A DNA stretch of 61,490 nt, counting the filler, from Hausera hauseri (taxonomy: Eukaryota), in NCBI GenBank assembly GCA_046269625.1. It is 12 parts of 12 records of this genome, joined end to end, with 100 filler letters (N's around TTAATTAATTAA, not from the genome) between each part and the next. Parts side by side here need not be neighbours in the genome. Positions count along the whole stretch, not along the records: positions 39,633 to 45,477 come from JBJURY010180750.1; 11 more parts are not named here. One strand, 5' to 3'. The translations under genes were made by a program, and so were the position numbers. Positions 17,005 through 61,490 of this stretch are shown in pieces. Position 1 is the stretch's first letter, and each line of letters begins with the position of its first letter. The notes under the pieces are model-generated. The model saw only the letters and a program-made list of their open reading frames with translations. It made no database searches and was not told where the DNA came from.

Positions 17005-17007
17005 TAA

Positions 17008-31269: not shown

Positions 31270-32450
31270 TGTTTATGTCACAGATTTCTTGTTCGACGTT
31301 CCGTTGAGGTTTGAATCTTCTTATGTGGATTACCTCTTTGATTCTTAGATTAATTTGGTCTCCTTCCGTGTCCAATATCTCCGCCCAGAACCTCGAGTCT
31401 CATTCTGTTGGTGTTCGAACACTGAGCTTCTTTCGTCTTTGAGGTGTTCGGTTATTCTGGTGTGTAGTTCCCTTATTGTGCTGCCTACATACATTTTGCT
31501 GCATTTGTTGCAAACTACATTCTTCCTGAGGCATATGTCGTTGTTGAGGGGGCGGTTCTTCAGTCTACATGGTTCCTTGATAGTCTTGCTGAGGAGATTT
31601 CTAATGGTCAATTTTCTATCGTACAGTCGTACGTCGAATCCCTCTTTTCTGAAGATTGATCCGATCTTCTTGTTCACTTGGTTGGATATGAAAGGGAAGT
31701 TNNNNNNNNNNAACACTTTTCATTCGTTTTCGTCTTTCTTTTCTGTTCTGTTTTTGTTTCCTTTCTTCTTCTTCCTCGGGTTGGTTTTTCGCATTGTTCT
31801 TCGATATAGTTTCTCTGGTATACGTTCACGGTTAGACTTTTTCGGAGCTACTGTAGGTTGTCTTTGAATTCCTGTTCTCTGCTACAGTGTTCCTTGATTC
31901 TAGCGATCTCTTCCTTGACCACGTTTACTTTGGTCTTCTGGGGATTGCTGAGTTATAGTTTATGAAGATGTCCTTCAGAGCTGGTTTCCTGTAAAAGTTC
32001 AGGTCGTGGATTTCGTTTCCGTAGACCGTGACAGTGAAGTCTAGCTGGCTCAGCGAGTTGACATCTGTTGGATGTTCTATTTCGAGTTTGATGTTTCTGT
32101 GTAAGGCTTTCATATCCATGTATATTTTCTCGGCCTCTTCCTTGTTCTTGTATATCATAAACATGTCGTCAACGAATCGCTTGTAGAGGGCGATGTTATT
32201 ATCCAGGATGGCTTTTCGTTCGATCTGGTCCATGAAGAGGATGACTAGTGTTCCTGATAGGCAGTTCCCCATCGGTAATCCTGTGGTTTGTTTGAATATT
32301 TCTCTGTTGAATGCGAAGTATGTCGTGTCGACGACGGATTCTAGGAGTTTTCTTATGTTCTCGACGTTTATGCCGTGGTAGTTGGGGTTCCCGCTGTTTA
32401 ATCGTCGGCATACGTTCTGTATTGCATCTTGGTAGGGTATAAAAGTGTAT
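31270..32450 (-). mobile_element. Penelope-like retroelement (RT + GIY-YIG endonuclease), 5' truncated
   Basis: GLPMGNCLSG, YKRFVDD, LDFTV, FYRKP, then CNKCSKMYVGSTIRELHTRITEH. Confidence 0.92.
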
Positions 32451-32599
32451 NNNNNNNNNNNNNNNNNNNNNNNNNNNNNNNNNNNNNNNNNNNNTTAATT
32501 AATTAANNNNNNNNNNNNNNNNNNNNNNNNNNNNNNNNNNNNNNNNNNNNTCTCAAAGAGAAAAGAAATTGTATATGAGATGTATGAATACATGTGAAA

Positions 32600-34600
32600 T
32601 TATATTCTCATCACAAGAATCTGCTGCCGATAATCACCGCATGGTCTGTATGTGTCATCTTTCTTCGTCACAACATGCAAAAGCGAAGCCCATTGTGATT
32701 TGGATCGTCGAATAATGCACGCCTTTTCGAGTTCATTGAACTCTGATTCAACAGCTTTTCGTCTGCGCGGTGAAAGTGGCCTCATCTTTTGTCTTATAAG
32801 TCTTCGGTGTTCGGTGTCTACGTGGTGATATTTTGTAGAATGTGCATTAAAATTGATGGCCTTCTTAAGAGTGCGGGAACAAAAAGTTTTAATGTAGGAT
32901 TTAATATCAGAACCCAACGATAAGAATGATGAGGGCATATCATTATAAGAGTCAGTGGCTGTAATTGATGTAGAATGACTAAATGCTTCATTAACGACAT
33001 TTGGTTCAGGATTGATTTGTTCCCACTTGACTAGATTGAAAATATTGATGAATTGTTAAGCTTGTTGTTATCAGCCGATGAACAGGATGTCAAATTGACA
33101 TTTGAATGAACAGAGGAAGACAAAGTGTACGATTGGTCATCTGATGAGCATTTGTTAATATTTGTAACTGAGTTTCTGTGCAGGAAGCATTTATGCTTGC
33201 AGTCGACTAACAAATCGTATGCAGAAAGGAAATCGGAGCCTATTATGGATGATCTGATGTTGGCTATGTGAAATTTCCAGGAGAATTTCCCTGGTAGGTT
33301 GGAGAATGTGAAAGTCAGTTTTGTAGTACCTACAATGTTCAAAGGTTGAACACAGGCAGTGAAGAGTGATGGAGAGAAAACTGTGTTAGACGTAGAACCG
33401 AAAGAAAAAGGAAGAAGTGAAAAGGCAGCTCCTGAATCGATAAGGAAATCTATTTGTGATGTGTCTCCAAATAACATTTCAGCTTTCAACAGAAAGACTG
33501 CACAGGCGGTGTTGAAACGGCCAGAAGATTGAATGATATTGCCTGTACCAGAATGTGCCGTGACATCTGGTGGCATTATTGGTTCTTTGAAACTTGTTGA
33601 GGAAAAGAAGAATAATGAGTACGAGGAGGCGAAGATGATGGAGAAAAATTAGAATTCCTTTTATAATATTTCCATACTGGCACGCACGACCTAGCCTGGG
33701 ACTGGTACTTTGTGTGATAGATGCAGATTAAATTGTCTACTGAATATCGTTCATCGTAGAATTAACAGCCTAAAACACTTTTTTGCGTCTTTTCGAAATT
33801 TATTGTGATAAAACACGTCATTTTACCATCTCTAGATTTGGAACGAGAAGAGTGCCTGGAAAAACTGCGATTGCGTAAAATACTATTTTCGCTTCTTCAG
33901 GACACGGATAAGTGACTGAGTTGGGCTGTGATCGCAGAAATTGCTTGTTGGAGTGTGTCGAACTGCTTCTGCAACATATAGAGTTGTTGTGCAAATAGAG
34001 TGTTTTCTGAAAATGTGTCAGCGGTTGCTGCGGCTACTGGCTGTAAATTATTAAACTGCAAAATATCAAAACTGTCTGCCAACGAGGCGAGTTTTTCAAG
34101 GGCAGTAGAGTCGTCTACTACAGTGAGCAGCGCTCGGATGGAGGTTGGCAAAGATAAAAGAAAATACTGACGAAGAAGATGGGCATTGTTTGTGGGACTG
34201 ACGCCCAAGGAGCTTAATTGCGAGATGGCAGTTTTAAGGAAATCCGATGGTTTTTGATTTCCGATGGCGCATTCATTAAAATATTTCTGAATTATGCTGT
34301 CGATGGAAGGGTCGGTGATATGTAGAACTGATTCATACAGCATATCATACGGGCTTGAAGAAGAGAGTATGTCAGCCAGATTATTGATTTGCTGCTTAAT
34401 GTTAGCTGGAAGTAATATCAGCAAACTGTTAGCCCGCAGAAAGTAATCTGTAATGTGATTGGCTTTGAGCCATTGCAAATGAAACTGTAACCAAGTGCTG
34501 TTCGAGTTCGTTTTATCTAGGAAAAATCTGTGCAGGGGAGATTTGGAGATGTAGATGGTGTGGGGTCGACAGGACAACGACCAGACCTGGTTTTGGTTAG
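32600..34600 (-). mobile_element. Ty3/Gypsy (CsRn1-like) gag-PR-RT start
   Basis: Gag (IGNQKPSDFL, LRQYFLLSLP), CHCC-type motifs, FLIDSGA, SQWASLLHVVTKKDDTYRPCGDYR. Confidence 0.9.
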
Positions 34601-34874
34601 AATTTTGGCAGAAGGGTCAAGGTCTGATCCATCACGGATACGAAAATGGACAGTAAGAGTCATGGCATGTTTCCCGGATGTAAAAGATGACAGATTCGTA
34701 AGGTAGCAAAGTTAGACCATTGTGCATACAATAAAAATCGGAGGAACCGAAAAAGGAGGATAATTCAGAATAAAGAATATGTGCCGTTTGTTTGTGCGTA
34801 ACCCTTAATGCTTAGACATGTTTATTATTAAAAAAAGAAAAAGGGAACGTGGCGCAGCGGGGGCGGTGACACTC

Positions 34875-37800
34875 GATCTCTCACCCAAATCAACGATAGA
34901 TCTTTCATTAATAATGTAATGTCGTATTATAAATGACGGAGTAGCGATATGTATGTGTATCATAATTTGATAGAGGTAATTCGGGCAATCCTTCTTTTGT
35001 GCATTGGTTAGTATCAATGGCGAAACGTTCATTACAGTTTGTGGTGACTGGCACTGTTTTGTCGTTACAAAAATTCTTGTCACCAGACGTTGCCGAAAGT
35101 GTCCGACTTCATGGGCGAAAGGCATAACGATAATAGTAGGATTTTTATTCAAATTTATAGATAGCGCTCGTTTATCTTCAAAGTAATTATACATAGTACC
35201 TGTATAGACGTATCCTAAGCTGTCTTTAAATCTGGAGATGGAAATTGACGATGTACAATATTTAGTATCTGCAATATGAGGAGCCATTCCCGTCACATTC
35301 AGGGACCTGATTTGTAAAGTAGTTGAGAAAACCAATTATTCGGTTTGTCATTTTATGTTTTTGGAAGAATTGGTGTCGAAAATCAGTAATATTGATTTTA
35401 TCGATTGGCACGGCTGTTAAACGGTTTGATTCTCGAGACATTTTTTCCATAGACTCAATTGTGGTTCACCGAAAGTATTGGGATGATATACAACTTTGCC
35501 ATACAATTGTTTTCTTAAAAGTAACAGATTCTGATTGTTCAAACTGAATAACTGAGTTGATGCACATTTCTCATCTGGTTTACAATTTGCACAACGTACA
35601 ATGAGTCTCCTCAATTTTGGTGCAGAACATTCTATTATAAATCCACGCAAATGATATTTGACTTTCCATGGAGGGTTCTTGTACAAAATATCGATTTCTG
35701 ATGATTCATCTCCCCATCGAACTTTTACTACTCGGCTCCAACGAAATTCTGTATCATATGGCTTACGGCACCAAATGTATATTTCATTTTCAATGGGATG
35801 TGGTTCTAATTTTTTGTCATAATTAAAATTCGGTAAATAATAATTGCCTTGTGTAATCATAATAAAGTCTTCATCTTGATAGTCCATTCTTCCTAGGTAA
35901 CATTTAAAAAGCAATGCTCTATCATCGATGCCTTCAGGTATTTCAAATAAATCTACATCTATTGCAATTTATTTGTTTTTTATATCATTTACCGTCAGTT
36001 TACCCGTATATAAAGTGCAATGAAAAATGGACGCATTTTGTCTAAACGATCTTATTGTTGCAAGTTATTTTTTTTCCGTAGTCATATTCGTTAGCTGGTC
36101 TTGTACCATAATTGTAAGATGGTGCTATGATGCTACCATAAATTGTATCTGGTATTCGTGTTGTGATGTGGACAAAACGTTCAGACAATGTTACAGTTGA
36201 GAGTTAATAATAATGCTTCCTTTACATTTATAATTGTACAAGTATATCCTTTACATTTAGCTGCGGTTTCCGGACTTATTTCTATAGTAGGGAATGATCC
36301 AATGCAATTTGACACACATTTGACAACTTGTGTGGGCAATACCATATGCGTCATTGTAATCATTAATAAATCCATATCGGTAAATTGAATTCTTGAATGT
36401 TCGACAAAATATTCCTGTTTCATCGAACTACAAAACAGGACGTAATGATCAAGCGGACGAAGGGTCGCCTTTACGAATTTTTCGCTTCCATCAGTAGACA
36501 ATAGTTTACATTTGTTATCAGTCGGCTTTACCCATTTACCGGCTGAGAAACAAGAAACGATCGTCATACCGTCATCGCTAACTTCCAAGACTCCAAGGCT
36601 TATTTCACTGTATTGCATGTCAGTGAAACATCCATAGTAACCTTCATTTTTATGGAAATATTTAGAATTTTTCGTAAAATCCATCTTCGTACAGAGTTCC
36701 AAAGCTCTTGAACTGTAAATGACCGATTTATATTCGGGATTTATTCCCCTCTAAGATGTTTCAAGTTGCAATGCAAGTTGTATAACACTTTCCATATTCC
36801 CTTGAGTATCATACATTGTAAAAGGATGTGTTGCAGTTCTGTTATCTATCATGGCGTTCAGAATATTTCTATCAGAAAACCAAACAAATGTAGGGATACC
36901 TGAAGAATTATCGACGGAATGATTGTCCTGATTACTTTGTTCTCAAGAAGATCCAATATCAGAAAGTTGATGTTGACGAACTTCTTCTAAACCGAAAGTA
37001 CGTAGAAAAGTACTGAGAGAACTGATTGCTGAATTTCGAATAAACGATTCATTATAGACTGAATTGTTAACTTGCCTGAAGTTTGTGAATGGATTATGCA
37101 GAACATTTGCAAACTCATTAATAAAGTGATTGTTGTTGGACTGTCGAGGATTAGGAGCTCTGAATAATCCAGAAGAAGACCGTTCATTGGAAGCAGAAAA
37201 TGGATAAACATTAAACTGACCCTGTGATAATGCATTTTCATTAATGCGAGGTAGATTCGGAGGATTTCTCTGTTGTACAGTTACATAATCGTTTGTAAGC
37301 TGTGAACGATTTCTGTTTCGCAATTGCGGCATTAGTACGTGTCGGAAATAATCAGACACACGAGGTAGAGGATATCGAACCTCTGGACAGTGATCAATCA
37401 AAGTGAATGATTGGAAAAAAATGCACGTCTTCGTATGAAATTTGAGTTTTGGAAGAAATTTTATCGGGTTCAGATTGAACATTTAGATTGGATTGCATTT
37501 CTGAATGATTTGAATTATCTTGGAAACTTACCTGAACGGGAGACAATCCATGATTGGTTTGATTTCTGTCTGAAACTGGAGATAAATCTCCAGATGAGGT
37601 AGATATAAATTCAGGCGTATTCGGATGAAACTGAACAACGGGATCAATTTGGGTGGTTAATAAATTATTATTATTATTATTATTGTTATTGTTACAAGAC
37701 CTTTTGATATGACACCATTTATAACGACGTGTTGAAAGCTCTGGAGTTAGTCTGGAGTTACCGAAAGGTGAGTTATTTCCTGCATTATTTTTATTTAGTG

Positions 37801-38715
37801 CTGATCCAAAGGATAAATCGCCAACAGAAATATTACCAAGATTCAGAAGAGAATTGAGAGTTAGATTATATTCACTATTAAGACTAACAGTATTTTTACG
37901 TTTCAAATCTTTTCTGGAACGAACTGAATGAGAAGTATTTTGATGATAACCAATTTCTCGATTTCCTTATGGAATTCTTCGTCGTCTTCGCCTTAATATG
38001 GGCAGATCGTTCGAGGATGAAGAATTATTAAAGGAATGTCATTTGAGTTGAGAATGAGCAAGGTCTGTTGTAAAACTGCCGGTCTTTACGCAAAGTTCCT
38101 GTTTAACCCAATCAACATTAGCTTGTGTAAAAGCCGGATTATGGACGGAATTGGCGAACCCTTGAAAATCATCGTTCAACATTCCATGTCGAAACAACGT
38201 ATTTCTACTAGTAGGACTCAATCGAATTAATGGAGGATCAAGAATGGAAAAATGTGGTGATTCTGATGTACTGAAGAAATTATTTTCATTTCCAGAATTA
38301 GATTTGTAACTATCCTCTGACGAAATAGAATTAACTGCAGCAGCTGCCGAGTGAATCATAAGATGTTCATGAGAATTATTAATAGCGTCTGTTCCAGCAA
38401 AATTATGGTCGGGTTGAACATAAATTGATCCATTTGGTGATACAGTATTTGTTCCATGAAAATACGATGAATGAAGATTTTTGTTATCAAATAACTCATA
38501 AAACGGTTCCTCTAAATCACCGTGGTCACCATCACTACATTCAGTACCTAATCGGTTGTTGATTACAAACCATATATACTGAAAGCCCTTTGCAACGTTT
38601 GTGAATATTAACAGTTGACCTTCATATGCCGGAAGTTGCTTCTCGATATTATTAACGAATTTGTCCACGCAATAAATAACAATAAATCTTGAGGTAAGAG
38701 AGGTATGATATACTG
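34875..38715 (-). pseudogene. About 3.8 kb of unidentified, intronless, co-oriented coding DNA between two gag copies
   Basis: Chain of long minus-strand ORFs (38039-38668, 37394-37906, 36943-37482, 36181-36702, 35417-35914, 34805-35335) linked by single stops or frameshifts; no retroelement motifs. Confidence 0.55.
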
Positions 38716-39532
38716 TAGGAATCAGTTCTACATATCACCGACCCTTCCATCGACAGCATAATTCAGAAATATTTTAATGAACACGCCATTGGAAATTAAA
38801 AACCATCGGATTTCCTCAAAACTGACATCTCGCAATTGGACTCTTTAGGCATGACTCCTATAAACAATGCCGATCTTCTTTGTCGGTATTTTCTTTCGTA
38901 TTTGCCAACCTCCATCTGAGCGCTGCGTACTGTAGTAGACGACTCTACTGCCCTTGAAAAACTCCCTTTGTTGGCAGAAAAAAGCTTTGATATTCTGCAG
39001 TCTAATAACTCACAGCCAGTAGCCGCAGCAAATGTCACACACTGTCAGACAACACCTTATTTACACAACAACTGCACATGATGCAGAAACAGTTCGACAC
39101 ACTCAAACAAGCAATTTCTGCAATCATAGCCCAACTCAGTGACTTATCTGTGTCCCGAGGAAGCGAAAATCGTATTACTCGCAATCGCAGTTTTTCTAGG
39201 CACTCTTCTTGTTATAAATCTAGAGATGGTAAAATGAAGTGTTTCTATCACAAAAAATTCTGCATAGATGCAAGGAAATGTGTTTTAGGCTGTCGATTCT
39301 ACGATGCACGATATGCCGTAGACAATCCAATCTGCATCTGTCACGCAAAGTGCCAGTCCAAGGCTAGGTCGTGAGTGCCAGGATGTAAACACTATAAAAG
39401 GAAATCTAGTTCTTTTCCATCTTCTTCGCCTCCGAGCACTTATCATTCCTCCTAGTTCTACCAACAAGTCTCAAAAAACCAATAATGCCACCAGATGCCA
39501 CGGCACATTCTGGTACAGGCAATATCATTCAA
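38716..39532 (+). mobile_element. Second CsRn1-like gag fragment, inverted relative to 33530-34330
   Basis: DNA closely matches the reverse complement of 33530-34330; CFYHKKFCIDARKCVLGC. Confidence 0.9.
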
Positions 39533-39632: not shown

Positions 39633-40832
39633 GAATCGGAGATGCGAGTACAGAAAGTAATGTTACATAGCGTCACCAAACTATATACCGAGAATCAAAA
39701 ATGCCACTTACAAGACTAAACCTGTGCCTTCAGAAGTTACGTTATAATATGGAAACCTCCCTCTGGAAAAAACTGTAACTTTATCAAAATTAAGGAATTG
39801 AAATTTAGCGAAACTAACGGAAAACGATATGTATATAAATCCGATACCACCTCAAGGACACCCGAGGACGTAGCAGAACACCCTACGCCTACTATGTTGA
39901 TCTCTCACCAGCATGGACTAAAATTTATTAAGAAAGAAATGATCTCGCGTGGCGAAGTGGTGATGTTCGCCACTAATTATGAAGCATTTTTCGTTGCAGA
40001 AAAGGAAATAAATGCGAAAAGGTATAAGCTAGAAACGCAGGATATTCGGATTGAGGATTACCTTAAAAACCGAGACGATTATTTTTATTACAAAAGACAA
40101 GTTGGAATAACAGAATTATACCACAAAATGACAACAAATGATTGTAAATTGGATATAGAAATTATGAGGACAAAATAACCCTGAGTTAGCCTCTCCAATA
40201 ATTTCTATGAGAGAAAGAATTTTCGGTCGAGTTACTGGTGAAGTACTATTGACTTATGAACGTGAGAAAACAAACGTACCAATCAACGTTGAAGAAAAGT
40301 TTTGTATACAGGAACTTCCTGTTATTTAACAGAATACTCCAACATTAGCCACGCCGCTAGCTAGAGTGTTGTTAGACAATGCAACTGAACCCGTGTTTAG
40401 GCGTAGTGAAAGGGATTGGGTTAGTTTGCCAAATAGAGGTATTACTGCCGCTCCAAATAAATTAACGGTAATAAACCTCGCAAAAGGAATTACCTACAAT
40501 AAGTTTAAAGACACTTCGTCAAAGGGCTTATATAGGCCTAAGGAAATTGAAGCCTTCAGGCAGTTTCTCGCTTGATATAATCTAAATGGGAATCATTGCT
40601 TGCCGTAAACCATTACCAGCGAGTAACCACAGAAATACTCTACAAAATTTGGGGAAGAATTTTAATTTTTGGACAAGCCGCATCTGTATTTATTGATATA
40701 TTTCCTAATAAAATGATTAAGGTCGTCATCCAAGCAGTAATAAATGGGTATAAAATATTTACATTAACCGGATTTTCATGTAAAATACTGACTGCAATCA
40801 TAACGCCTTTTGGAAAGTTCATGAAAGCATAG
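39633..40832 (+). pseudogene. Chuvirus-like class III fusion glycoprotein, C-terminal half (copy A)
   Basis: FATNY, YLKNRDDYFY, GRVTGEVL, CIQELPV, KGLY, then hydrophobic IFGQAAS...VINGY.IF.LTGFSCKILTAI. Confidence 0.75.
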
Positions 40833-41469
40833 GAAGAAAGTAGATGGAAATCGGACGTAGAACGTCATGTCGCTTACCATAATCGTAAACAAAAAGGAAA
40901 ACCTATGTTCTTGTACAAGTGGAAATTCACAAAACTTAATACGTAAAGAAATAGGAGGAGAAGTACTCCCAAGAATATACAGACATAAGACGCATTCCAT
41001 CATTAAAGAACCATTGCCTATGCTACCCCCTACTGCTCCAGTCTATAAAGACTGTAACAAACGATTAATGAGCCCATATCAGACAGAAATCTATAAAAAT
41101 ACAATCAGTTTAGAAGACTTCTACGAAGGAACGAAACGTTATGTAGTCCCACGGAAAATGTGTTACCGACAGCCCGTTGAATACCCTAGAATATTGTATT
41201 CCCCGAGAGAACCTAGGAATATAGAAACTAAATCGCCTATCTGGGAAAATCCAAGGTTAAAAAGTTTCCGGAGTATAGAGAGAACCATTAATTAGTACTC
41301 ATGAAACGGAAGAATTAAACATCGAAATCAATGAATTATTTACAAACGGAGAAATAAGACAATTATCGGAAAACATAGTATCCTCCCCCGGAAATCCGAA
41401 TCAACGGACATAAAATATCGGCGACTAAATGCCCAAAAGTTGCGTCAAACTGTTTTGGAACAGTGCTAG

Positions 41470-44029
41470 AAGGAAGACCCTTCGCCAAAATCATTATTAA
41501 AGACTGGGAAATTTATGCATTAATCGATACAGGTTCTGAGATGTCTTACATTAAAAATGATTCAAGACCTCAACACTGAGAGGACAATTATGCCCACCAT
41601 CTACAAAGCATCCCGCAAGTACAGGAGCTTTTGGCCAAATGTCGAAACCGATGTTCGAATGGAACCTAGAAGTTTAAATAGTTGGACAGTTTTTCCGTCA
41701 TGAATTTGTAGTTGTGGAACAATTGACTGACGACGTAGTTTTAGGATATGATCTACTTAAAAGACTACCAAATATAGCAATTGATTTGCAGACAGGAAAA
41801 TTAATAGAAATCAGACCCAATAAAGGCGTAAAAAACACCGAGGATAGGAAATTTGGAGAAGTGTAGATACCAGTAGATGGAAATATTCCACCGAGAACAG
41901 AGATAATAATTTATGCTCAAATTCAGCAAGACGACGATCAACCGGCATATTTTGAACCAAAGGAGACATTAAATATGAATATAATACTCAGTAACGTACC
42001 GACAAGAGTACACTCCGGTCGTGTAGCGATCAGAATAGAAAATAATGCACAAATCCCCGTCAAGCTTTATGCTTATACTACTTTAGGAAATACGTATAGT
42101 GTCGTCTATAACTATTGAGGAAGAGCCTTATAAGTATGCCGAATTCCCACCTCATGTTGAAACTAAGTTTTCACCTGAATCTTACTGATGATTTTATGAA
42201 TTGTTGTGTCGCTATAAATCAATCATTGCTAAAGACGACGGGCAAAAGCGTTAAAGTTGACTATTCCGCTTAAGAAAAAGCTAGGTTCAAATAAAGAAAT
42301 AGATATTGAGGATCAAAAGATGCCGAATTGGTATCCTCCGCCACATTCATTATGGCCTGAGATAAAAAAGGACGTCGAACGGATGGTTAAGGCCGATATA
42401 ATTAAATCCAGCTATAGATCTTGGTATTCACCAGTTCTCATGGTTAAAAAGAAGGGTACTACAAAACATCGATTCTGTATTTAGTACATAGCATTACATA
42501 ATATTATGACGAAAGATTCTTTTCCATTGCAGTCAGTAAAAAAGGCTCTAGACAGACTGTCAGAAGCAAAATGGTTCACCACTCTGGACTTACAATCTAG
42601 GTATTGGCAAATAGAAATCGAGGACGAAGATCGGTATAAAACCGCATTCAAAACACACGATGGCGTTTAAGAATTCAACGTCATGCCATTCGGTATTACT
42701 GCCGGACCAGCTATTTTTACAAGAATGATGAAAAAGGCGCTAATGGGACAAGACCATGCTTTTGCATATTTAGACGACGTAATGATTGCGTCAAAGACAG
42801 AAGAGGAACACTTAAAAGATAGTGAACACACGCTGATGCGACTGGAACAGGCCGGACTAAAACTAAATTCGAAGAAATGTAAATTGGCTCAAAACGCAGT
42901 ATTTTGCGTTGGCCATATAGTTGGAGAAGGAGGATCTAAACCAGACAAATCGTTATTGAACAAAATATCAGATTGCATGGAGCCACAAAATCAGAAGGAG
43001 TTGAGACATGGGCTAGGTCTCTGTGATGTAAAGAACTGGGTAAATGCTTGTGAAGTATGCGCGACTAAAGAAAAGAAGAAAAAAATTAAATGGCGGAACT
43101 GAAACCAATCGACGTACCGGAGAGACCCATGCAGGCCATGTCAGTGGATATCGTAGGACCACTACCTACGACCAATAAAAATAATAAATATATCTTAACT
43201 TGATTTGACCGACTAAGTATTTTGTCGAGTTGATAGCGTTAATTGATCAAAAGGTGGAAACATTTGCCGAAGCTGTAGTAAGAAGAATAATTTGCCGATA
43301 TGGGCTGCCAGACCAAATACTAATAGATCGAAAAAGAAATTTTACCGGTGAACTATTCGAGAAGATTAGCAAAATATTTGAAATCGAAAGGTTTACCACT
43401 ACCGCGTATTATCTCCAGTGTAATGGAATGGTTGAACTGATGAATGCAACTGTCATACGCATACTATCAACAGTAGTAGCTAAAAACCAAAAAGATTGGG
43501 ACAAATTTTTAAAAGGAACTCAATTTGAGATTAATACCACCCCACAGCCGGAAACAGGGTTCATGCCATTTTTCATGATGTACGGACGTGAAGCCGTGTT
43601 ACCCACAGACTTAGGAATGACACCATACATGGTCAATACCGAAGATCTAGAACAAAACTTCGCAGAAGTATTACAGACGCGACTACAAAACTGTTGGGAA
43701 ATCGCCAAGGAGAATACCAAGAATATCAAGAACAGTTTAAAAAGAAATATGATAAGAAAGCAAAACCGCATGCTTGAGAACGTGGAAATTGGGTTTATGT
43801 ACATTATCCATTAGCCAAGAAGGGCTCCTCATTAAAACTGACTCGGACGGGCCGAGAACCGTACGAAATTACTAGAGTTACGCCAACTACGGTGTATATT
43901 AACAAGAATGGAAAGGAAGAAGTCATATAAGTACAAAGAGATGTTAAGACGGAGATACAGCCCAATAAACGTTACAATTTACGCCAACGCGAGAAAAAAA
44001 CTTCTTCAATAATTGCTAGACAGATATAA
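41470..44029 (+). mobile_element. Ty3/Gypsy pol, copy A (PR-RT-IN; RNase H deleted)
   Basis: LIDTGS at 41526, WYSPVLMV, MPFGIT, YLDD, jump to CEVC at about 43024, VDIVGPLP, CNGMVE, ends RYNLR. Confidence 0.93.
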
Positions 44030-45433
44030 TACTTTCAGATACTTTTAGCACTAACATTAATTGCTTCTTATATCCCAAGAACACAAACTCAATGGTGGGA
44101 CAATGAAACTACGGTAGAAGACGTATATGGAATAAGGAAGAGCAGACTAAAAGAGAAAAATACCATAGCGGAGAAGAAACCAACGGTTGAAGAGATCCAA
44201 AATCGAGAAGACACTATTTTGTTACAATCAATGAAGGTTTATTATGTTTGCCAGACGCCGTGTGCGTCGGATTTAAAACTTGGAGACCGCATCATGATTT
44301 CGGAAGATTTCAAATTGTCCTATACTATGTAACATCAAAGGAAGCGAAAAACTGTGATTTTGAACCTGGATATTATACACAATGCTGCGAAATAGATTCT
44401 GGACACATCTAAGACCTTACTTATCGATTTTACTTACCGGACTCAACGGAACATTATGTCGCAATAAACCCACAACTTCAGTTAGTTATTCCTGCTTGGA
44501 TTAAACGATTTGAAGTGAAAACAGACGAAATGCTACAATCTATCGACCCAAAAATAAGGCCATTAGATGAAAATATCAAAAGGATCTTAAAAAATAAAGA
44601 AAAACAATGCATCCAAGTAGAAGCTGGAACAGGATTAACTCGTAGTCAAGAAATTAGTATCGTTTTCGAAGCAGTAAACGGAAAAACTCCGAGAATAAAT
44701 TACAGTTCTATTCATGCCGGTATGTAACACACATGTTGTAAGCTACCTGTAAACCAAGAATTCAAAATAAAATTTGACCTATATGAGGTATGACCGAACA
44801 AACCAAGAAAACATTTGCGAACTTATTACCCAACGAATAGAATATGGAGGATTCCAATAGAAACGACAACCGAAAGGCCGACTACTCGAGTCAGTACCAT
44901 TACGAAATCCGTTACATCAAACAGTGTGCTTAAAAGAAAATTAGAAAGTATACATATTAAATATTTGGCATATCGATTTAAAATTGTGTTCTTTGTAGAC
45001 GAAAAACTAAATTACGATATACATATAAGCTGCCGAACAAAGTATAATCATCAAATTGTAACACTACTTAACAACACTTGCCAGACAGAATGCAATTTGC
45101 TAAAGCCACTATCCGATTACATAGTAAAAGTATATGCAAAGGATAAACAAAATAAAACAATTACATTGCGTACCTTAGATAAAATTCATGCAGAATCGTA
45201 TATATGAAAATATAGACGATGAAATCACAACTCCACTCACCACGCAAGCACCAATGGAATTAACCACTTTACCGATCATATCCGTTGTCGTACTATAAAC
45301 GTTTGTTCTCACCATCTTAATTGCGACTTTTTGATTAGTTGCCAAAAATTGTCATTTTAAGCGTCCTAAAACTACCGAATGGGAACTAAGGGAATTGGAA
45401 ACCCTTAGTGATCCGTATGATAAAATAACCTGA
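44030..45433 (+). pseudogene. Type I membrane glycoprotein with FN3-like domain downstream of integrase
   Basis: Signal-like FQILLALTLIASY, paired-Cys ectodomain, T-rich linkers, LKPLSDYIVKVYAKD, TM PIISVVVL.TFVLTILIATF.LV, short tail. Confidence 0.65.
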
Positions 45434-45577
45434 CAACTACAGAGCGGGTTATTCTATCATCTAACAAAGAATTGGTTNNNNNNNNNNNNNNNNNNNNNNN
45501 NNNNNNNNNNNNNNNNNNNNNTTAATTAATTAANNNNNNNNNNNNNNNNNNNNNNNNNNNNNNNNNNNNNNNNNNNN

Positions 45578-48260
45578 CACTAGTGACACAAGTTCAACAA
45601 AATGAGTCAAGCGATCTATACATGTCAGAATGTATTTATTATTCTTATGAGTTGCAGGTAACGGTCATACAATATCTATGGACATTGCTTGCATTGGTCT
45701 GTCCGATACGTTTATTGGCCTGAGTTCGGGAATGTAGTTTTTCACTTTCTTCTTGGTTGCGCATACTTCGCAAGCATTTACCCAATTCTTCACATCGATG
45801 TATACGCTTGACCAGTAATATTTAGTACCATTCCTAATGTCTTTGTCCATGACATGTCCGGCTAAGTATGAGTCATGTTCGGCCATTAGTATTGCCGTGC
45901 GTAACCCTTTTGGTATGACTACCAACTTTCGTCCTTTCTACTCATAATACAGTACATTTTCATGGCTCGTGTTTCCTGTTACGGAGTATTTGTGACCATG
46001 TTTTTGCAAATGTTTCCGTAACTGGTGTCCTTTCGGTGTTATTTCCCTTTCTACAAACTCAATGATTTGTACAACCTTGTCCTTCCTTTGTTCAACAGAA
46101 ATTTTAATTGCTTTATCCAATATTAGAGCTCGTTGTCTGTCTAATAGTTCATTGAGCTGAGCTTTTCTCATTACAGTAATTGCGCTCGTTTTAGTTTTAA
46201 GCCTTGATGGTGCATCAGCATCGACATGTTTGCTTCCGGGTTTGTATTGAAATTCAATGTTATACCGTTAGATCTCTTCGATCTATCGGTTGAGTCTACC
46301 TTTCAAAGTTGTAACTGCCTTGTGATCCGTAACAATTATAATCTGTCCGTAGACGTATACGCTAAAGTGTCGTAGAGCTTCTTTTACAGCTAACGTTTCT
46401 AATTCCGTGACCGAGTAATTCTTTTCAGCCTTCTTTAGTGATCACCATCTGTATACGATTGGATGTTTTAGTTTTTCATCCTCTTGTTTTTGAGCTAACT
46501 CATCCGATGCCGTCTTTACTGGCATCCGTTTTAATTATAAACGATAGGTTAAAATCGGAATACCTTAAAACAGGTTCGTTAATTAAGATTTTCTTCATTT
46601 TGTCGAAAGCTTTTTGTTCGACGTCCGTCCATTTCCATTTAATTCCCTTTTAAGTAAACGATACAAAGGCGCATTTATTTTTGAATTATCCGGTACAAGT
46701 GGCGTAATACCCACATAAACCTAACCAGTGTCGCAACTCCTTTTGGTTCTGGGGTTCCATACAATCTGATATCTTAACAACGATTTATCAGGTTTCGACC
46801 CTACTCCAACTATATGTTCGAGATAGGATACAGCGTTTTGAGCCCATTTACATTTCTTGGGATTCAATTTCAATCCAGCTTGGTCCTCTCTCATGAGCGT
46901 GTCCTCAATATCCTTTAAATGTTCTGTCTTCGATGTAATCATTACGTCGTCCAGATATGCGAACGCGTTTTTCAATCCCATTAGCATCTTGTTCATCATT
47001 CGCGTAAAAATGGCGGGTCCAGTAGTTATCCCGAATGGCATGACATTAAATTCGTATACACCATCGTGCGTTGTAAGCGCAGTTTTGTAGCGATCTATTT
47101 CTTCTTGCCAATATCCGGATTGTAGATCGAGTGTGGTACACCATTTTGCTCCGGAAAGTCTATCGAGGGCTTCTTTTACTGATGGTAAAGGAAAGGAATC
47201 TTTCATCATAAGTGTTTAACGCTCTATAATCGATACAAAATCGATGCTTTGTAGTACCTTTTTTCTTGACCATGAGTATAGGTGAGTACCAAGATCTATA
47301 GGTTGGTCTAATTATGTGGGGCTTTAGCATGCATTCGACTTTTGTTATCTCCGGCCTTAAAGAGTGCGGAGGGGATACCATTTCGGCATTTTTTGATCCT
47401 CGAAGTCTATTTCATTTTTGGAGCCAGGATTTTTAAGTGGAATTGTTAGTCTCAGGGCTTTGGCTCTGCCAATGTCTTCGTCTCTTGCGATGACTGAGCT
47501 ATAATGATAACGTAATTCGTAAAATCGACAGTATGCTTCTGGCGAAAATTTAGTTTCAACGTTGAAGTGGGAATTCGGCACATTTGTAAGGTTTTTCTTC
47601 AATAGTTATTGACGATACTCTATATGTATGACCCAAGGTGGTATTGGTATACATATACATATTGGTATATATATTGATCGGGGTTTGCATTATTAGCTAT
47701 TCTGATGGGCACACGGCTCGTCGATACTCTTGTTAATATGTTGCTGAGTACGATACTTGGGCTTAACGATATCTTTGGTTCAAAATACACTGGTTGGCCG
47801 TCGTCTTGACGCATCTGAGCATATATTAACACCTCGGTTCTAGGTGGAATGTTCTCGTCCATTGGAATCCATACTTCTCCGAATTGTCTATCTTTGGTGG
47901 TTTTAACTCCCTTTATCGTACCGAGCTCTATTAATTTCCCTGCATGAAAGTCTATTGCTATATTGGGTAATTGTCTCAACAGATCACATCCTAAGACTAC
48001 ATCGTTTGTTAACTGTTTCATTACTGAAAATTCGTGATGAAATGACTGTCCCATTATGCGAATTTCTGGCTTCCATCGGAATTTGCTTTTCGACGACTGT
48101 TCAAAAGCTCCAGTACTTCCTGGATCTGTTGTTGGAGGTGGATATAGTTGTTTCCTCAGAAACTGCGGTATTGAGTTGTTTTATCAGTCATATCTCCGAT
48201 CCTGTGTCTATGAATGCGTAAACTTCCCAATCTTCTAACTGAATTTTCGCGAAGGGTCTA
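45578..48260 (-). mobile_element. Ty3/Gypsy pol, copy B (PR-RT-RH-IN start)
   Basis: FIDTGS, CIDYRALN, TLDLQSGYWQ, YLDD, KTDASK.GIG, TDHK, HDSYLAGH, CEVC. Confidence 0.95.
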
Positions 48261-48949
48261 CCTTCGATTACCGTATCATAGTTATTTGGCCCTATCTTGG
48301 GATGCTGAACCGTTGACACCTTATAGTTGTTAATTCTAACTTCGGTGGTTGCAACTGGCTCGGCGATTAACTGTTTTAGTACTCCATTTGGGTACAGTTC
48401 ATTGTTTGTGCAATTGACGTTTTCCATTTCCTGGCTTATAACTGGCAGCTGTATTTCTTGGTTCCTGAAACTCTGCGTCTCATGGTCTCTTGAGAATGTT
48501 GATCGTATTTCGTTCGGCCTGGGTACTCTAGGTGAATAAATTATTCCATGGTTATCGACTGCTGAGCGACGATATGGGGCAGATGTTCTTTTCGTTTCGT
48601 GTACTTTACGCAATATTCCGTAGTGTTTTGTTCCCTCATAGGGATCCTCAAGGCTGAACGGTTTTTTATAGATATCCGTTTGGTATAAGCTCGCAGATTG
48701 TTTCTCAGTCTTCATATATAGGTGCAGTGGGCGGTAGTATTGGTAAGGGTGGTTTCATAACGGAATAGTCTTTGTGTCTATTTATCTTCGAGATGACGTC
48801 TCCTCCCTTAGGCTCGTCATCGCCAAAGTTATCTCGTCGTGTCTTGACATTCACGAATTGACGTTTGTAACTGAATGTCTCCTTTCACGTTTTCTATTAT
48901 GATAGCGAACATGTCGTTCCGCATCCGCTTTCCATCTACTTCGTAAGGC

Positions 48950-50700
48950 TTTAAGAATTTGCCGAAAGGTGTCATAATAGCCGTTAAAATTTTGCATGAG
49001 AATCCTGTCAAAGTGAATATTTCATATCCATTTATAATCGATTGAATTATCTCTTTAACCAGTTGAATTAAGAAATAGATTGCTAAGAATCCAGATGCGG
49101 CTTGTCCGAATATCAGAAATCTTCTCCAGATTTTATACAGTATTTCTGTGGTCACTGATAGTAGTTGATACCAATTACGATTCCCATTTTGCTTGATAAC
49201 GCGAGTCTTCTAGTATTATATGCATTGCTCTGTTTAATTCATGTGTGCGTTGGCGTGGAAAAGCGAGAAATTGTCCAAATGCCTCTACTTCTTTTGGTCC
49301 GTAAATACCCTTTGCTGCAGTATCTTGAAACCTATCGATTAATCCCCTTATTAAATTCGTTCCCGTTAGCTTGACGGGCGGCGTTATTATACAACCATTT
49401 GGTAAACTTACCCTATCTGTTTCACTACGTATAAACATGGGTTCTTCTACACTGGTCTTACAATCCTTCAGAATCGTGGGTTGGGTGGAGATTGCCAGTA
49501 ACACTGGTAATTGACATCACTAATTTCGGTATGTCCTGATATATTACGGGAAGTCCTTGAATGCACCTCTTCTCTTCCACGTTAATAGGTACATTCTTCT
49601 CAGCAGAACCTCCCCGGTCACCCGTCCAAAAACGCCTTCTTTCATCGGAATTATTGGTGACAATAGCTAGGGATTGGTATATATTAAAGCCAGTTTGGTT
49701 CTCATGACTTTACAGTCATTTACAGTCATTTTGTGGTATAACTCAGCTATTCCGGCGTGCCCTTTGTAGTATAAATAGTCGTCTCTATTTTTCAAATAAT
49801 CCTCAATTCGGATATCTTGAGTCTCAAGCTTGAATGTTTTGGCATTTATCTCAGTCTCAGCTACAAGGAACGCTTCATAATTAGTGGCATACATTACTAC
49901 ATCGCATCTTCACAAATTTTAACCCGAGAGTATAGGAAATTAATATTGTGGGTGTGGGATGTTCAGATACATCCTCTCGCGTTTTTGAGTTTGTATCCGT
50001 TTTACTTACGTAGCGTTTTTCTGTTGTTTCGTTGAACTTAAGTTCTTTAATTTTAATAAAATTGTAATCGGTCTTGGCTGAAGGTTCCCAAATTACTACT
50101 GAACTTCTAAAAACACAGGTGCCATCTTGTATGTGGCACTTGGTTTTCCGTATAGAGCTTAGCAACGCTATGAAACATCACTTTCTGTGAATGCATCTCG
50201 GTTTCGTAGAAATCCACAACCACTATGTTTGACTCTAATCCCTTTCCAGTATCGTATTCTGCGCCATTACAGTGACCCGTAAGCATATTTAATCTTCCTG
50301 CTGTTACTTTGTATACTCTGATTATTTTCCATTGCTGCATTTCTAATTCTTGCCGTCCCATTTCAGCCTGCCTGTTTCTCTAGCCTGTTTACAATGTTGG
50401 AGTTCTAAATTCATTGGAATTAGTGGGGTCGTCGGCTTAATTATAGATGAATGTCCGTGTATTAATCCACAATGGAAAATACTGCGAGATCGTCGTAACT
50501 TGCATTCTATCCCGTCCAATGAAACTGACTCTCGTTGCTGATACAGTACGTATCTTCTTTCTTTTGTTTCTAATTTATGTGGCCTCGCATCTTCGCACAT
50601 GTCCAAATCCATCGAATCTGAATTTGTCAAAGTCATATATTGTAACTTCTCCCATTTGTCTTATTAACATCATCACGGTCAGGAAATTGAGTAGCCAGTT
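48950..50700 (-). pseudogene. Full-length chuvirus-like class III fusion glycoprotein (copy B), upstream of PR
   Basis: Signal WLLNFLTVMMLI, ECKLRRSRSIFHCGLIHGHSS, CKQARETG, GHCNGAEY, CHIQDGTC...W, GEVL, CIQGLPV, GIY, FGQAASGFLAIYFLIQLVK. Confidence 0.8.
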
Positions 50701-52005
50701 GGGCTCGTTTCCCCGATTATTTGCCATTGAATTCCGTAACATATCTTCTAATCTACTATTACCCGTTTTGTTCTTCTTTTTCGAATAGTTTGGATCAATT
50801 TACTTCTCGGGGTAACTTCCTGGCAGTCCTTCGCGCTAGTCTAGTGGCCTTATTAAGTTCATTTTCTCCGGCAGGGTTTGTTTTAATGGCTAAATATAGT
50901 AAATCTTCTATGGTGTTCTCTACCATAATTTTTTCGATCACCGATTCATCGCTTAAGGTGCTTCTCGATAATTTACATCGGAAATTTCGTATTGTTTTGG
51001 CTGCATTGTATAAAGATTTCTCTTCATATAATACATCGCCACAGAGACTAGAGTGGTTTACTATGCGTATCAAGTTCTTCATAAGTTAATTCAGCTCTTC
51101 GTTTTCTGCACTATAGGTTGGTATGGACATTTTCCTCAACTCCCTAATTAAATCTCCGTTAAAATCAGTCTCCTCTCGTGTGTTCCGCGGACTGCCAACA
51201 GGATGCTTCTGTTTCACCATATCTGGTGCGGTTTTGTTGGATGGTACTAGATTATTATCATACTGTTCCTTGTCTTCGTCCGTTTGCAAGTATTCGAAGT
51301 ACATTGCTGTATCTCGAACTCCCACGATTCATCCTACGCACTTATTTGTTTTTAGCTTTCCTTGTGGCCTCTTTTTGTCTCCTGTAGCGACCGTTACTAC
51401 TATTTGATTCGTTTCGCCTGGGATAATTCCGACGTCTATTGCTCCAGTTCATCCAATATTCTACCTCTAAAGTAAAGTCTATAGTTCAGTTGGCTTGCGT
51501 AACCATTACCCATTATTCCCTGTACCACGTATCTCACACAGGAGTGCGTCGTAAATTCGCACTTTTTCGTCCATCCTGTCCGACGTTATATTTACCTTAA
51601 TCGACTCTTCGGGTCTAGCCCTTAAGATTTTAGCATACTCCTTTATCAAAAGCTTTGGCGCGGCACTGTATATTGTACCCTCGCTAGATAGTTTAGTCAG
51701 AATATGTACTAAGTGTCTCAACTGATTTTCAGTAAGGTTTACATTAATTAACTTAATTAGATTTTTTTTTCAGTTTGTGCTGAGTCTAGAAGCATTTCCA
51801 CACTGAATCTCCGATCCTGCGGACATGTCTCCGCTACGTACAAACGTACAGGGGTTTTTGGCTTCTCAGACATTATTGCGTCTAAGTATGCATCCAATTC
51901 TGGTTCGTTCTCACTGTTTGGCAGTCTGTAATCAACCGTTGACATGTCCTCTGGTTGAGCCGTTTCCACATTCCGTGCTGATTTTCTTAAATCGCGTAAA
52001 CTCCG
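50701..52005 (-). pseudogene. N-terminal polyprotein region of copy B, including a ubiquitin-like domain (about 51390-51603)
   Basis: Colinear with 58990-60260; NYRLYFRGRILDELEQ.DVGIIPGETNQIVVTV. Confidence 0.7.
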
Positions 52006-57331: not shown

Positions 57332-58985
57332 AAATTAAGAAATGAATTGCTAAAAATCCAGATGCGGCTTGTTCAAAAATTAAAAATCTTTTGTAAATTT
57401 TAAACAAGATATCTGTGCTTACTCCTTGGTAAAGATTAAAGCCAAATACTGATTCCAGTTTCGCCTGGTATGGAATATCTTCTAATATCGTATGCATAGC
57501 CCGGTTTAGTTTATGCGTACGCTGACGTGTAAAAGTAAGAAATTATCTAAATGCTTTAACTTCCTTTGGTCTGGTAATACCTTTGACTGCGATGNNNNNN
57601 NNNNTATCGTCGGTTATTTCTTTTACTAAGTTTGCTCCTGTTAGCTTAATTGGCGGAGTGATTAAATCTCCGTTTGGTAAACTTACCTAATCAGTTTCGT
57701 TACGTCTAAACATTGGTTCTCCTAAACTCGTTTTACAATCCTTCAAAATTGTTGACTAAGTTGAGTTTGTCAGCAAAATTCTAGTAATCGACGTCACTAA
57801 TCTCGGCATATCTTGATACATCTCTTTTCTTAAACATTAATAGGTACCTCGCTTTTTTCGCATTCATAGGTCAGTAAAACTTCTCCAGTCACTCGGACAA
57901 AAACATCTTCCTTCATTGGAATTATCGGTGATGTTAGCTCGGGGTTGGCATATATCAAAACAAACTTAGTTCTCATAATCTTTAAGTCTAATTTACAGTG
58001 GTTCTTTATCATTTTTTGGTATTGTTCAGTTATTCCGGCCTGTCCCTTGAAATATAAATAGCCATCTCTATTTTTCAGATAATCCGCAATTCGTATATAT
58101 TGAGTCTCAAGCTTGAATGTTTTGGCATTTATCTCCGTTTCAGCTACGAAAAATGCTTCTTAGTTAGTAGCATACCTCACCGCATCGCATCCTATGAGTA
58201 CGTCCCTTTTTCACAAATTTTAATCCATGAGTATCGGAAATTAATATAGTAGGTGTGGGTTGTTCAGCTATGTCTTCCGTGTTGTCGAGTTAGAATCTAT
58301 ACTATTCACATATCGTTTTACTGTCGTTTCATTAAAGTTTAGTTCTTTAATTTTGATAAAATTGCAATCTGTCTTGACTGGAGGTTCCAAAATTACTACC
58401 GAACTTCTAAAAGCACAAGTGCCGTCTTGTATATGGCACTTTTGGTTTCAGTTCAAAATTTTTTAACGCTATAAAACATCACTTTTTTGTTCGCATTTCG
58501 GTTTCATAGAAGTCCACAACCAATATGTTTGATTCTGTTCCTTTACCAGTATCATATTCTGCACCGTTACAATGTCCGTTGTGCATATCTAGTTTTCCTG
58601 CTGCCATTTTAAATCCTATGATTATTTTTCCTTCCTGCATTTCAAGTTTCATGCCATCCCATTGTAATCTACCTGTTTCTCTAGCTTGCTTACAATGCTG
58701 GAGTTCCAAGTTCATTGGAACTGGTAGGGTTGTAGGCTTAATTATGTATTAATGTCCGTGTATTAGTCTACAATGGAAAATACTGCGGGACCCTTGCAAA
58801 ATGCATTCTATTCAACCTAATTTTTCTCTTTTGTTTCTAATTTATATGGTCTTGCACCTTTACACATTTCTAGATCCATTAATGAATACTTTCGGCCAAG
58901 TTTAAATTTGTCGCAGTTATATATTGTAACAGCTCCCATTTGCTTTATTAACATCATCACAGTTAGAAGGTTAATTAGCCCATTT
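57332..58985 (-). pseudogene. Chuvirus-like class III fusion glycoprotein (copy C)
   Basis: LINLLTVMMLIKQMGAVTIYNCD, CKQARETG, GHCNGAEY, VRVTGEVLLTYEC, FEQAASGFLAIHFLI. Confidence 0.8.
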
Positions 58986-58989
58986 AAGT

Positions 58990-61481
58990 CGTTTACTAGA
59001 TCATTCCCAATTAAATTTCGTACCATGTCTTCGAAGCTACTATTGCTATTGTTAGAGGATGGCCTATTTTAATGTTCTTCTTTTTTAAATAGCTTGAACC
59101 AATTTACATATCGAGGTAATTTTTTGGCGGCTTTCCGCGCTAGGCTACTGGCTCCGTTAAATTCATTTTCTCGAGTCGGATTTGTTTTAATGGCCAAATA
59201 TAGTAATAATTTTCTTAATTCTTCTATGGTATTTTCTACCATAATTTTCTCGATCACTGTCTGATCAGTTAGAGTGCTTTTTGGTATTTTAAAACGGAAA
59301 TTTCTCATCGTTCTGGCTGCATTATATAGCTTTTTCTTTCTCATCTGGTATATCGCTGTGGAAACTAGAATGATTTAATATGCATATTAAATTTTTCATG
59401 AGTTCATTTAATTCTTCGTTCTCAGCATTGAATGTAGGTATGGATTTCTTCTCGTATTTTACATGGTCAACCGACAGGATGTTTCTGTTTCGTCGTAATT
59501 GATATGGTTTCACTAGGTGGTACTATATTTTTATCATAATGTTTTTTGTCTTCATCTGTTTGCAAGTTTTCGAAGTGTACTGCTGCGTCTCGAACTCCCA
59601 TTATTCGTTCTACACACTGATCAGTTTTAGCTTTTCGCGTGGCTTCTTTTGTTTCCTCAGTTGTCACTATAGCCACTATACGATTTGCTTCATCTGGGAT
59701 AATCCAAACGTCTGTTAAGTGTTACAGTTCATTTAGTATTCTACCTTTAAAGTAGAGTTTATAATTCATTTCGTTTCCGCCACCATTGCTTATTAGCCAC
59801 TGATTCACGTCTCTTACGGAGGAGCGCGTAGTGAACTCGCATTATTTTTCGTCCATCCATTCAGACGATATCCTTATTTTAGTCATCGCTTTCGGCTTAG
59901 TCCTTAAGATTTTAGCATACGCCTTTATTAAAAGTTTCCGCACGGCGCTATAAATTGTATTTTCGTTAGATAATTTAGTCATGATAGGAAGTAACTGTCT
60001 TAACTTAATTTCGGTGATTTTTACATTAATTAATTTAATTAAACCTTTTTCAGTTTGCGCCGAATCCAGAAGCATCTCCACACTGAATCTCCGATCCTGT
60101 GGGCACCTCTCCGTTTCGTAAAATGTACATGAGTTTTCTCATTATGGGCAACAATTGCATCCAAATACTCATCCCATTCTGGATCGTTTTCATTCGCTGG
60201 TAGTCCGTAATAAATTACTGGCACATCTGCTTGTTGGATTGCGTTTGTATTGCGCATCATTTCTCTTCGCGTAATTATTGTTGCATTTTAACCATTTGTG
60301 TCGTTCGGAATCAACATCCGTTTCCGAAAGTTTTATCCAATAATTTTAACAACTAGCAAAATTCGTGGACCTGGATTAATCCTTTTCTTTGTAATTAGTT
60401 AGTTCACAGGCTACGTCTCTTTGCCATCTTTACAAAAATTGTAATTTGTCAGCTATTTCTGTATCCGTAATAGCATATTTATTTCCAAGTCTTGAATTAA
60501 TTCATCTACTACTGCTTTTCTTTGGTCAATGCGAATTTGCATTTTCCGAACTTGGCTTCTTCGGGTCTGTAGCTATCTCATGTTTTCACCACTCTTTTCG
60601 GCCATTTTGACTAACAGTTGGACCAACTGACTTATCTCTTCTAATATTTTATAGTCTAAATCGATTTCTGCAATTGGTTTCTTTACGAAACTTGTTTTTT
60701 CAATTGCAAATAGGCGGTCTTTCATTATTTCCGTTAATCTGGTGTTCCATTTTTGATCCCATCCACGTATCCAATTATCTGGGTTTTGCAAGAACTTTTA
60801 ACACATCTACAATAGAGTTCTCATGATCTAAACAAATCTCTAACGTTTTCCGTTCTTGCGTTGTAATCCTATTAGGCGAAACCTTTAAATGCATGGGTAG
60901 GTTTCGCATGTCAAGTTTCGTTTCAACTTAAAGCCTGTTTCTTCGATAATTTTATATATTTTCTCCAGGGCTGTCATCTCTTCAGTTTCACTCATAATTT
61001 CTAACTGTTTCAATTAAGTGAAATGCATTCGAATATCTACCTTTGCCCTCATAGTGTCTAAATTTCTCGAAGTTTCTCCCAATTGTTGTTTCACTATTGG
61101 TACACTTTCTGGGAACTTTTTTATTCCGTTTCCCGTGAGTAGACTCAGTCTGGATATTAATTCGAACCATTCCTTTAGTTGATTGGCTATTAAAGGTTTC
61201 GCCATTATTGCATTATGTAGCGTTTTGTAAGTGTCTTCCATTTTGTCATTATCGCCTTTAATAAAATCCATTATCTGGTTGGCATACTTGAATTCACCTT
61301 TATACTCATCAAATTCAAGGATATAAGCCTTAATTATACTCAATGTTTCCTCATTATTCATATACATAATTCTGTTCCTTGAGTTGTATATTTTCGATCT
61401 TTTTTCGTTTTCGATCTTAATACGATTTTCTAGATTTGTATATTGTTTTGATGCGGTGGAAGCGATTTTTATCATTTCCAT
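58990..61481 (-). pseudogene. Long N-terminal polyprotein region of copy C, including a ubiquitin-like domain (about 59665-59885)
   Basis: Chain of ORFs over 2.5 kb, helical and charged; 59069-59344 and 58817-59026 share a frame and are separated by one stop. Confidence 0.7.
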
Positions 61482-61490
61482 TAGGGAGGG

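Follow-up and report, generated by a model that had tools for sequence, protein, structure and literature searches.

Env-bearing Ty3/gypsy elements are described as gag, pol and a single fusogen. In gB-type errantiviruses of flatworms, nematodes and bryozoans, Env stands before Pol (PMC13524379), and the planarian element Burro is described with env in frame between gag and pol (PMC6431247). Glycoproteins can also follow Pol in frame: the belpaovirus Atlas makes a single Gag-Pol-Env polyprotein that includes GN- and GC-like glycoproteins after Pol (PMC9094657). In the crocodilian element CrocERV31 a captured adhesion protein, nectin3, stands in for env (PMC4299795). We analyzed a 61,490-nucleotide stretch of DNA from Hausera hauseri (assembly GCA_046269625.1; below, the window), which joins 12 contigs with N runs and a TTAATTAATTAA linker between each and the next, and we counted only neighbors within a contig. 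Positions 39633–45477 (contig JBJURY010180750.1) are a decayed Ty3/gypsy element with the order class III fusogen, protease, reverse transcriptase (RT), integrase. Behind the integrase it carries a gene for a second predicted membrane protein, which is real, conserved, element-borne and apparently undescribed.

The gene behind the integrase

Evidence on other copies comes from a public run (X1), which contains 26% of the contig's words and whose contigs were placed at 80% likeness; no RNA data set was listed among those sharing these words, which carries no information on expression. A total of 16,685 of its contigs fall on positions 39633–45477, with 7,987 less than 90% alike, 531 at least 99% alike and all 30 bins covered, and each of three listed sites inside the second-protein gene is covered by 44–56 of them. 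The 151-nt junction between integrase and signal peptide has 489 contigs, and all eight listed pieces (of 493) bridge it at 81–87% identity. Many diverged copies thus join the integrase to the gene, which does not belong to host DNA flanking a single insertion. The original prediction had asked whether other copies have this reading frame between integrase and the 3' long terminal repeat (LTR); in the junction-bridging copies, short contigs in which no LTR is seen, the integrase end does lead into the gene, and the gene is not absent from the family. Its pairing of a fusogen with a separate type I membrane protein in the same element also holds up, with a PF24664 glycoprotein on the contig and the gene in the element family. 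Three observations stand against this reading: depth over the gene (957–2011) is for the most part below the values for env and pol (1728–33855), so that it may diverge faster or be carried by not all copies; the copy evidence is one run of short contigs, possibly the host's own population; and neither of the two sister copies in the window extends beyond the start of the integrase, both being without coverage of the gene. Taken together, the gene is almost certainly part of the element.

A phmmer search of 1.84 billion representatives gave four matches, two of them real relatives: P0003, an intact protein of 479 amino acids (E 1.5e-46), and P0004, a 189-residue fragment (E 7e-25), both unnamed single-member clusters. 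(P0005 and P0006, the other two, are repetitive bacterial Ig-like/cadherin proteins and were dropped as compositional.) The contig is collinear with P0003 over residues 10–479, from signal peptide to last residue (summed E 8e-61), and the best segment scores 203 bits, against a maximum of 27.3 bits in 100 base shuffles of the contig; thus the match is not due to chance. Identity to the two relatives is 34–48%. The P0003 alignment has 198 columns without a gap across domains 1 and 2 (below) and keeps nine of ten ectodomain cysteines, and P0003 and P0004 each have one hydrophobic helix at the matching transmembrane (TM) place, so that the protein is conserved across three lineages. A word-index protein search returned nothing for the contig piece and, with P0003 as query, only P0003 itself; the same index among longer proteins (840–2395 amino acids) also returned nothing, which is weak evidence. 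No related locus was found in the viral or metagenome contigs searched and no phage matched, and a PDB sequence search gave no match for the second protein.

The motifs named in the original prediction all lie where it had placed them: TQCCEI at 44377, HTCCKL at 44728, a T-rich linker at 44863, LKPLSDYIVKVYAKD, and the tail end DPYDKIT with its stop at 45431–45433. The signal peptide and TM helix were judged from hydropathy windows, the TM window at 45275 reaching 2.86 on the Kyte-Doolittle scale. The signal-peptide region is 47% identical to P0003 residues 10–87 and likely ends in a signal-peptidase site, by eye from small residues at -3 and -1. We take the end of the tail, Y-x-(R/K)-I-T, to be a YxxPhi-type sorting motif; a PDZ-binding tail was considered and dropped, all three tails ending in Thr. 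Of the predicted mucin character the S/T-rich stretches stand, but long mucin domains do not, there being only short linkers of about 20–30 residues. The gene is split over two frames by frameshifts near 44240 and 45200 and has six internal stops in about 470 codons, compared with seven in 651 codons over four Pol segments of the same copy. This similar stop density indicates that the gene and Pol decayed alike, and in this copy the gene is dead.

These findings bear on the idea that the gene is neutral captured DNA, or a host gene or retrocopy next to this particular insertion. In its favor, the contig ends behind the gene without a visible LTR; however, the diverged contigs bridge integrase and signal peptide in register, the gene is multicopy, in frame, intronless and decayed like Pol, and three lineages retain its cysteines, TM helix and tail. 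The idea is largely refuted, and we regard it as highly improbable.

As originally described, the integrase end KRYNLRQR...RQI is in the same frame as the TAA at 44027 and the stretch resembling a signal peptide, and this frame contains no ATG between 43900 and 44100. Conservation of the TAA, which the original prediction had left to be checked, is not borne out: 1701.5 of 1781.2 depth (about 95%, 71 contigs) differs at this codon. No insertion or deletion is listed at the junction at 20% or more, the other 10 listed differences make no in-frame stop or ATG (by eye), and the stop falls within the stretch that aligns with the P0003 signal peptide. Because the TAA is unshared and lies inside that alignment, the break belongs to this copy alone and does not mark the true end of the integrase, and thus the integrase likely continues straight into the signal peptide in this subfamily. 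Expression of the second protein in frame with Pol is fairly probable in this subfamily. An overlap of stop and start codons where the integrase ends was also considered and dropped, no indel or ATG variant being listed at 20% or more.

The protein could instead be made from a spliced subgenomic mRNA, as gypsy env is, or from its own start codon, the open frame from the integrase being incidental. A Met stands at the start of the P0003 signal peptide, and the nine residues before it are unlike the integrase end, which tells against in-frame expression there; the P0003 lineage may express the protein from a separate open reading frame (ORF). A YAG at 44017–44019 behind a short pyrimidine run is a candidate splice acceptor with no variant listed. 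On the other side, most copies have no listed stop or ATG between integrase and signal peptide, the integrase must end somewhere, and the pyrimidine run is weak. We consider such a separate route unlikely.

Predicted fold of the second protein

AlphaFold2 models were weak to moderate (alignments of 3 and 2 rows), with mean confidence scores (pLDDT) of 56 for P0003 and 64 for domains 1 and 2 of the contig copy. The P0003 model has a helix at residues 32–74 (pLDDT about 47–68) and three beta-sandwiches, and its top Foldseek matches are triple fibronectin type III (FN3) fragments from fibronectin 10–12 (E 5e-9), contactin, gp130 and Dscam. With VIA the scores to FN3 domains are Z 7–9, near background, as bacterial beta-sandwiches score alike, and fibronectin reaches 9.2; domain 2 gives Z 7–8.5 to FN3 domains with a root-mean-square deviation of about 3 Å over about 85 residues. 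Matches in BFVD are generic FN3 proteins. Domains 1 and 2 are an internal tandem duplicate (none of 1000 shuffles scores as high), domain 3 being barely related to domain 2 (19 of 1000) and unrelated to domain 1 (832 of 1000). The seven-stranded beta-sandwich of FN3 domains appears, at moderate confidence, in the predicted models, and FN3 entries dominate the matches. The Pfam fn3 family stays below its gathering score of 25 bits: P0004 has the best match (13 bits, E 0.12), and P0003 and P0001 have none; P0004 is 47% identical, without gaps, to domain 3. From these models an FN3-like fold is very probable. The FN3-like segment of the original prediction is thereby retained, but its two Cys-Cys modules are not a separate kind, being themselves predicted to be FN3-like.

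The model of domains 1 and 2 alone matches cytokine-receptor FN3 pairs first, although weakly (IL-2Rgamma at E 1.4e-4, IL-23R, IL-17RA), and the IL-20 receptor complex gives Z 8.5. This would fit a host-modulating cargo with no role in entry, that is, a decoy, a dominant-negative receptor or a survival or adhesion signal on the surface of the cell that bears the element, made by a cytokine-receptor-like FN3 pair without a signalling tail; the short tail of the protein agrees with it. However, fibronectin matches equally or better (Z 9.2), so that cytokine receptors are not singled out. The hallmark of class I cytokine receptors, WSXWS in the second FN3 domain, is absent from P0003 and from the contig copy. 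The conserved endocytosis-type tail and co-production with Env are equally compatible with a role in the particle. Burro elements bear BIR, BCL2-like, MATH and ankyrin cargo (PMC6431247), and the protein would then be comparable to this anti-apoptotic and ankyrin cargo. We regard cargo as possible but doubtful. Neither paramyxovirus H, HN or G nor herpesvirus gD is among the fold matches listed. The chances that the second protein acts in adhesion or attachment seem evenly balanced, and this role is favored over cargo.

The env-pol element and the rest of the window

Features of the contig are collected in the table. Pfam family PF24664 (Monjiviricetes-type class III fusion glycoprotein) matches at 40623–40826 (E 5.9e-9, above cut-off) and 39720–40175 (E 5e-4, below it) and in the sister copies at E 1.4e-13 and 5.5e-8; it is thus present in 3 of 3 copies, and lies 5' of the protease wherever both are present. 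The sister copies (contigs at 45578–52005 and 57332–61490, minus strand) are about 70–77% identical in DNA. Behind the Env anchor, each of the two copies that span this region has a PTAP motif within a proline-rich stretch (in the sister at 48731, minus strand); we take it to be a late domain, possibly an ESCRT late domain outside Gag. The Pol order is that of Ty3/gypsy, with RVP, RVT_1 and rve in order here and RT, RNase H and an integrase zinc finger in a sister; at the deletion site the sister alignment skips from 46712 to 45796, and the sister has RT_RNaseH at E 1.2e-14. By tblastn the integrase region matches those of two other gypsy-type contigs, and its C-terminal part holds what we take to be a GPY/F-like motif and the RYNLR end.

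Features of the env-pol contig (window positions; + strand)
Feature	Position	Strand	Basis
Class III (gB/chuvirus-like) fusion glycoprotein, 3' part, truncated by contig start, decayed	39633..40830	+	PF24664
PTAP motif between Env anchor and protease	41029..41040	+	Motif search
Retroviral-type aspartic protease, frameshifted	41469..41760	+	Pfam RVP E 0.005 (below cut-off); DTG motif
Reverse transcriptase	42446..42919	+	RVT_1 E 1.5e-27
Deletion site, about 0.9 kb, RNase H lost in this copy	43020..43030	+	Alignment to sister copy
Integrase, core and C-terminal part	43050..44011	+	rve E 0.026 (below cut-off); tblastn
Predicted signal peptide in integrase frame, broken by stop 44027	44012..44089	+	Hydropathy; P0003 alignment
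Charged, predicted helical N-terminal ectodomain segment; first frameshift near its end	44090..44255	+	P0003 model
Predicted FN3-like domain 1, Cys-Cys (TQCCEI)	44257..44460	+	Models; duplicate of domain 2
Predicted FN3-like domain 2, Cys-Cys (HTCCKL)	44575..44853	+	pLDDT about 66–84; fold matches
Thr/Ser-rich linker	44863..44925	+	Sequence; also in P0003 and P0004
Predicted FN3-like domain 3	44950..45180	+	Seven strands in P0003 model; P0004 alignment
Short Thr-rich stalk after second frameshift	45203..45271	+	Sequence, alignment
Predicted transmembrane helix, interrupted here by two stops	45272..45343	+	Hydropathy
Short basic cytoplasmic tail, end Y-x-(R/K)-I-T-stop	45344..45433	+	Same end in P0003, P0004
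Purine-rich run, possible polypurine tract (weak)	45441..45448	+	Sequence

Over the stretch from env to RT that two copies have in common, identity is 71%, with differences mostly at third codon positions, and no coding-frame stop is common to both in any of 10 aligned blocks of at least 90 nt (frameshifts occur in each copy, and the count covers the blocks alone). Absence of common stops and third-position differences would suit a single long frame that first diverged while under selection and decayed later. No Gag family was matched by Pfam in the three sense frames of either sister copy; upstream of env these copies extend for 1.4 and 2.5 kb. The sequence there (50600–52005 and 58970–61490, minus strand; at most 2.5 kb) is coding, rich in predicted helix and decayed, with no Pfam match at E up to 0.5.

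The contig ends, at an assembly linker, 44 nt past the stop of the second-protein gene, and consequently no 3' LTR is visible; a 17-mer 3' of that stop occurs once only in the whole window, so that no LTR was identified. Summed contig depth in run X1, which is not copy number, is 15860 in the last bin (45288–45477), about 16 times the 957 of the bin before it. This jump and the purine run 7 nt after the stop indicate that the 3' LTR may start within 45288–45477.

Elsewhere in the window, adjacency is artificial across the linkers (4136–4235, 8948–9047 and nine more). The first contig (1–4135) has an 84-nt tandem repeat at its start, a 947-bp inverted duplication of 89% identity (908–1852 and 3215–4135) and a C2H2 zinc-finger ORF at 1243–1665. 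Three contigs (4236–18469) carry a dUTPase at 11810–12142 (E 1.9e-9) and ORFs that we label, presumptively, polymerase-like (6602–7171), ATPase-like (9880–10227) and capsid-like (16351–17007), of Polinton/adintovirus-like kind, with no matching Pfam hit. The contig at 22801–28076 has a gypsy-type RT preceded by long unidentified ORFs (23686–25747); by eye, a module near 24000–24400 is repeated after the RT at about 27000–27300, followed by hydrophobic and Thr-rich stretches. An RT (E 2.9e-9) lies on the minus strand of 31345–32450, with a GIY-YIG-like stretch after it, for which we assume a Penelope-like label. Finally, 32551–39532 holds gypsy-like gag and protease fragments, before them about 4 kb of long unidentified ORFs on the minus strand (34805–38734), and an 831-bp inverted duplicate at the contig end.

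Possible roles and comparison with known systems

Our tentative explanation, whose probability we put slightly short of even, is that the contig is a dead env-pol Ty3/gypsy copy, likely from a flatworm to judge by gene order and the by-eye likeness of its Env to Smed errantivirus Env, whose family makes a predicted triple-FN3-like type I protein as a tail in the Pol frame, which would aid adhesion or attachment during spread driven by Env. One polyprotein would thread the membrane of the endoplasmic reticulum (ER), entering at Env, whose ectodomain would be lumenal; protease, RT and integrase would be cytosolic, and a second internal signal would re-enter the ER and leave the FN3 ectodomain in the lumen. 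Signal peptidase could then free the type I glycoprotein and the element's protease release the integrase from the signal anchor, so that the second protein and Env would be made in a 1:1 ratio, and the YxxPhi-type tail of the second protein might sort it to the site at which Env and capsids collect. Membrane sorting and budding are suggested by this conserved tail and by the PTAP behind Env. Under a more specific form, which we think somewhat unlikely, a lineage of flatworm LTR retroelements would have a two-component entry system assembled from parts of unrelated origin, in which Pol is preceded by a class III fusogen and followed by a triple-FN3 receptor binder taken from a host; the single polyprotein would pass through the ER membrane four times and hold Pol tethered between two anchors at the budding site. 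It counts against any partner in entry that several class III fusogens, such as VSV G and baculovirus GP64, work without one. If true, two-component entry would be a division of labor like that of herpesviruses and paramyxoviruses, independently evolved in a retrotransposon. A conserved second surface protein is in any case a concrete candidate for tropism or host manipulation, surveys that end at the integrase end miss a gene, and the element would be a natural case of Pol between two membrane proteins in one frame.

Among described elements, Burro/GYPSM1 resembles this one in having a fusion glycoprotein between the gag side and the protease, perhaps in one frame with Pol here too, a long coding region upstream of env and an insert between protease and RT; the section that describes Burro mentions no membrane or FN3 protein behind the integrase (PMC6431247). 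The BIR, MATH, BCL2 and ankyrin cargo of Burro/GYPSM1 was not detected in the scanned parts of the sister copies; in 41699–42115 and five upstream segments, from decayed and partial copies, none of these nor a dUTPase-like domain gave a Pfam match at E up to 0.5. Directly ahead of env lies a segment in the position of Burro's BCL2-like domain, a likeness of position alone. The GAG-ENV-POL errantiviruses with HSV/gB-type Env (Platyhelminthes C1a, Smed_errantivirus_1-6) share the class III Env before Pol, and its motif order here resembles, by eye and not by computation, the six Smed (Schmidtea) Env rows of the supplement (PMC13524379). That study annotated GAG, ENV and POL only, and its main text does not contain 'fibronectin', 'accessory' or 'fourth ORF' (PMC13524379).

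Full-text literature searches found no FN3 membrane protein in an LTR element and no FN3 protein paired with a gB-type env; the Burro annotation may already show one. The statement in the original prediction that no LTR retroelement has such a pairing is nevertheless too strong, given Atlas with GN and GC (PMC9094657) and CrocERV31 with nectin3 (PMC4299795). CrocERV31 nectin3 and CrocERV29 KIT-ligand are likewise host-type cell-surface genes after pol, there under purifying selection, but those elements are vertebrate retroviruses, nectin3 replaces env and both captures can still be recognized as host genes (PMC4299795), whereas the present protein is without a named relative. The sORF2 of MDG1-group retrotransposons is also an accessory transmembrane protein that aids cell-to-cell spread, but it is tiny, FAST-like and found in elements without Env (PMC11952523). 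These precedents (Atlas GN and GC, the crocodilian nectin3 and KIT-ligand captures, and sORF2) narrow the novelty of the arrangement. Atlas shares with it an LTR element with a fusogen and a second glycoprotein in a single polyprotein, the glycoproteins in frame behind Pol; its GN and GC are adjacent and came jointly from a phenuivirus-like donor (class II) (PMC9094657), whereas in the present element the class III Env stands before Pol, and the protein after Pol is unrelated to it and predicted to be FN3-like.

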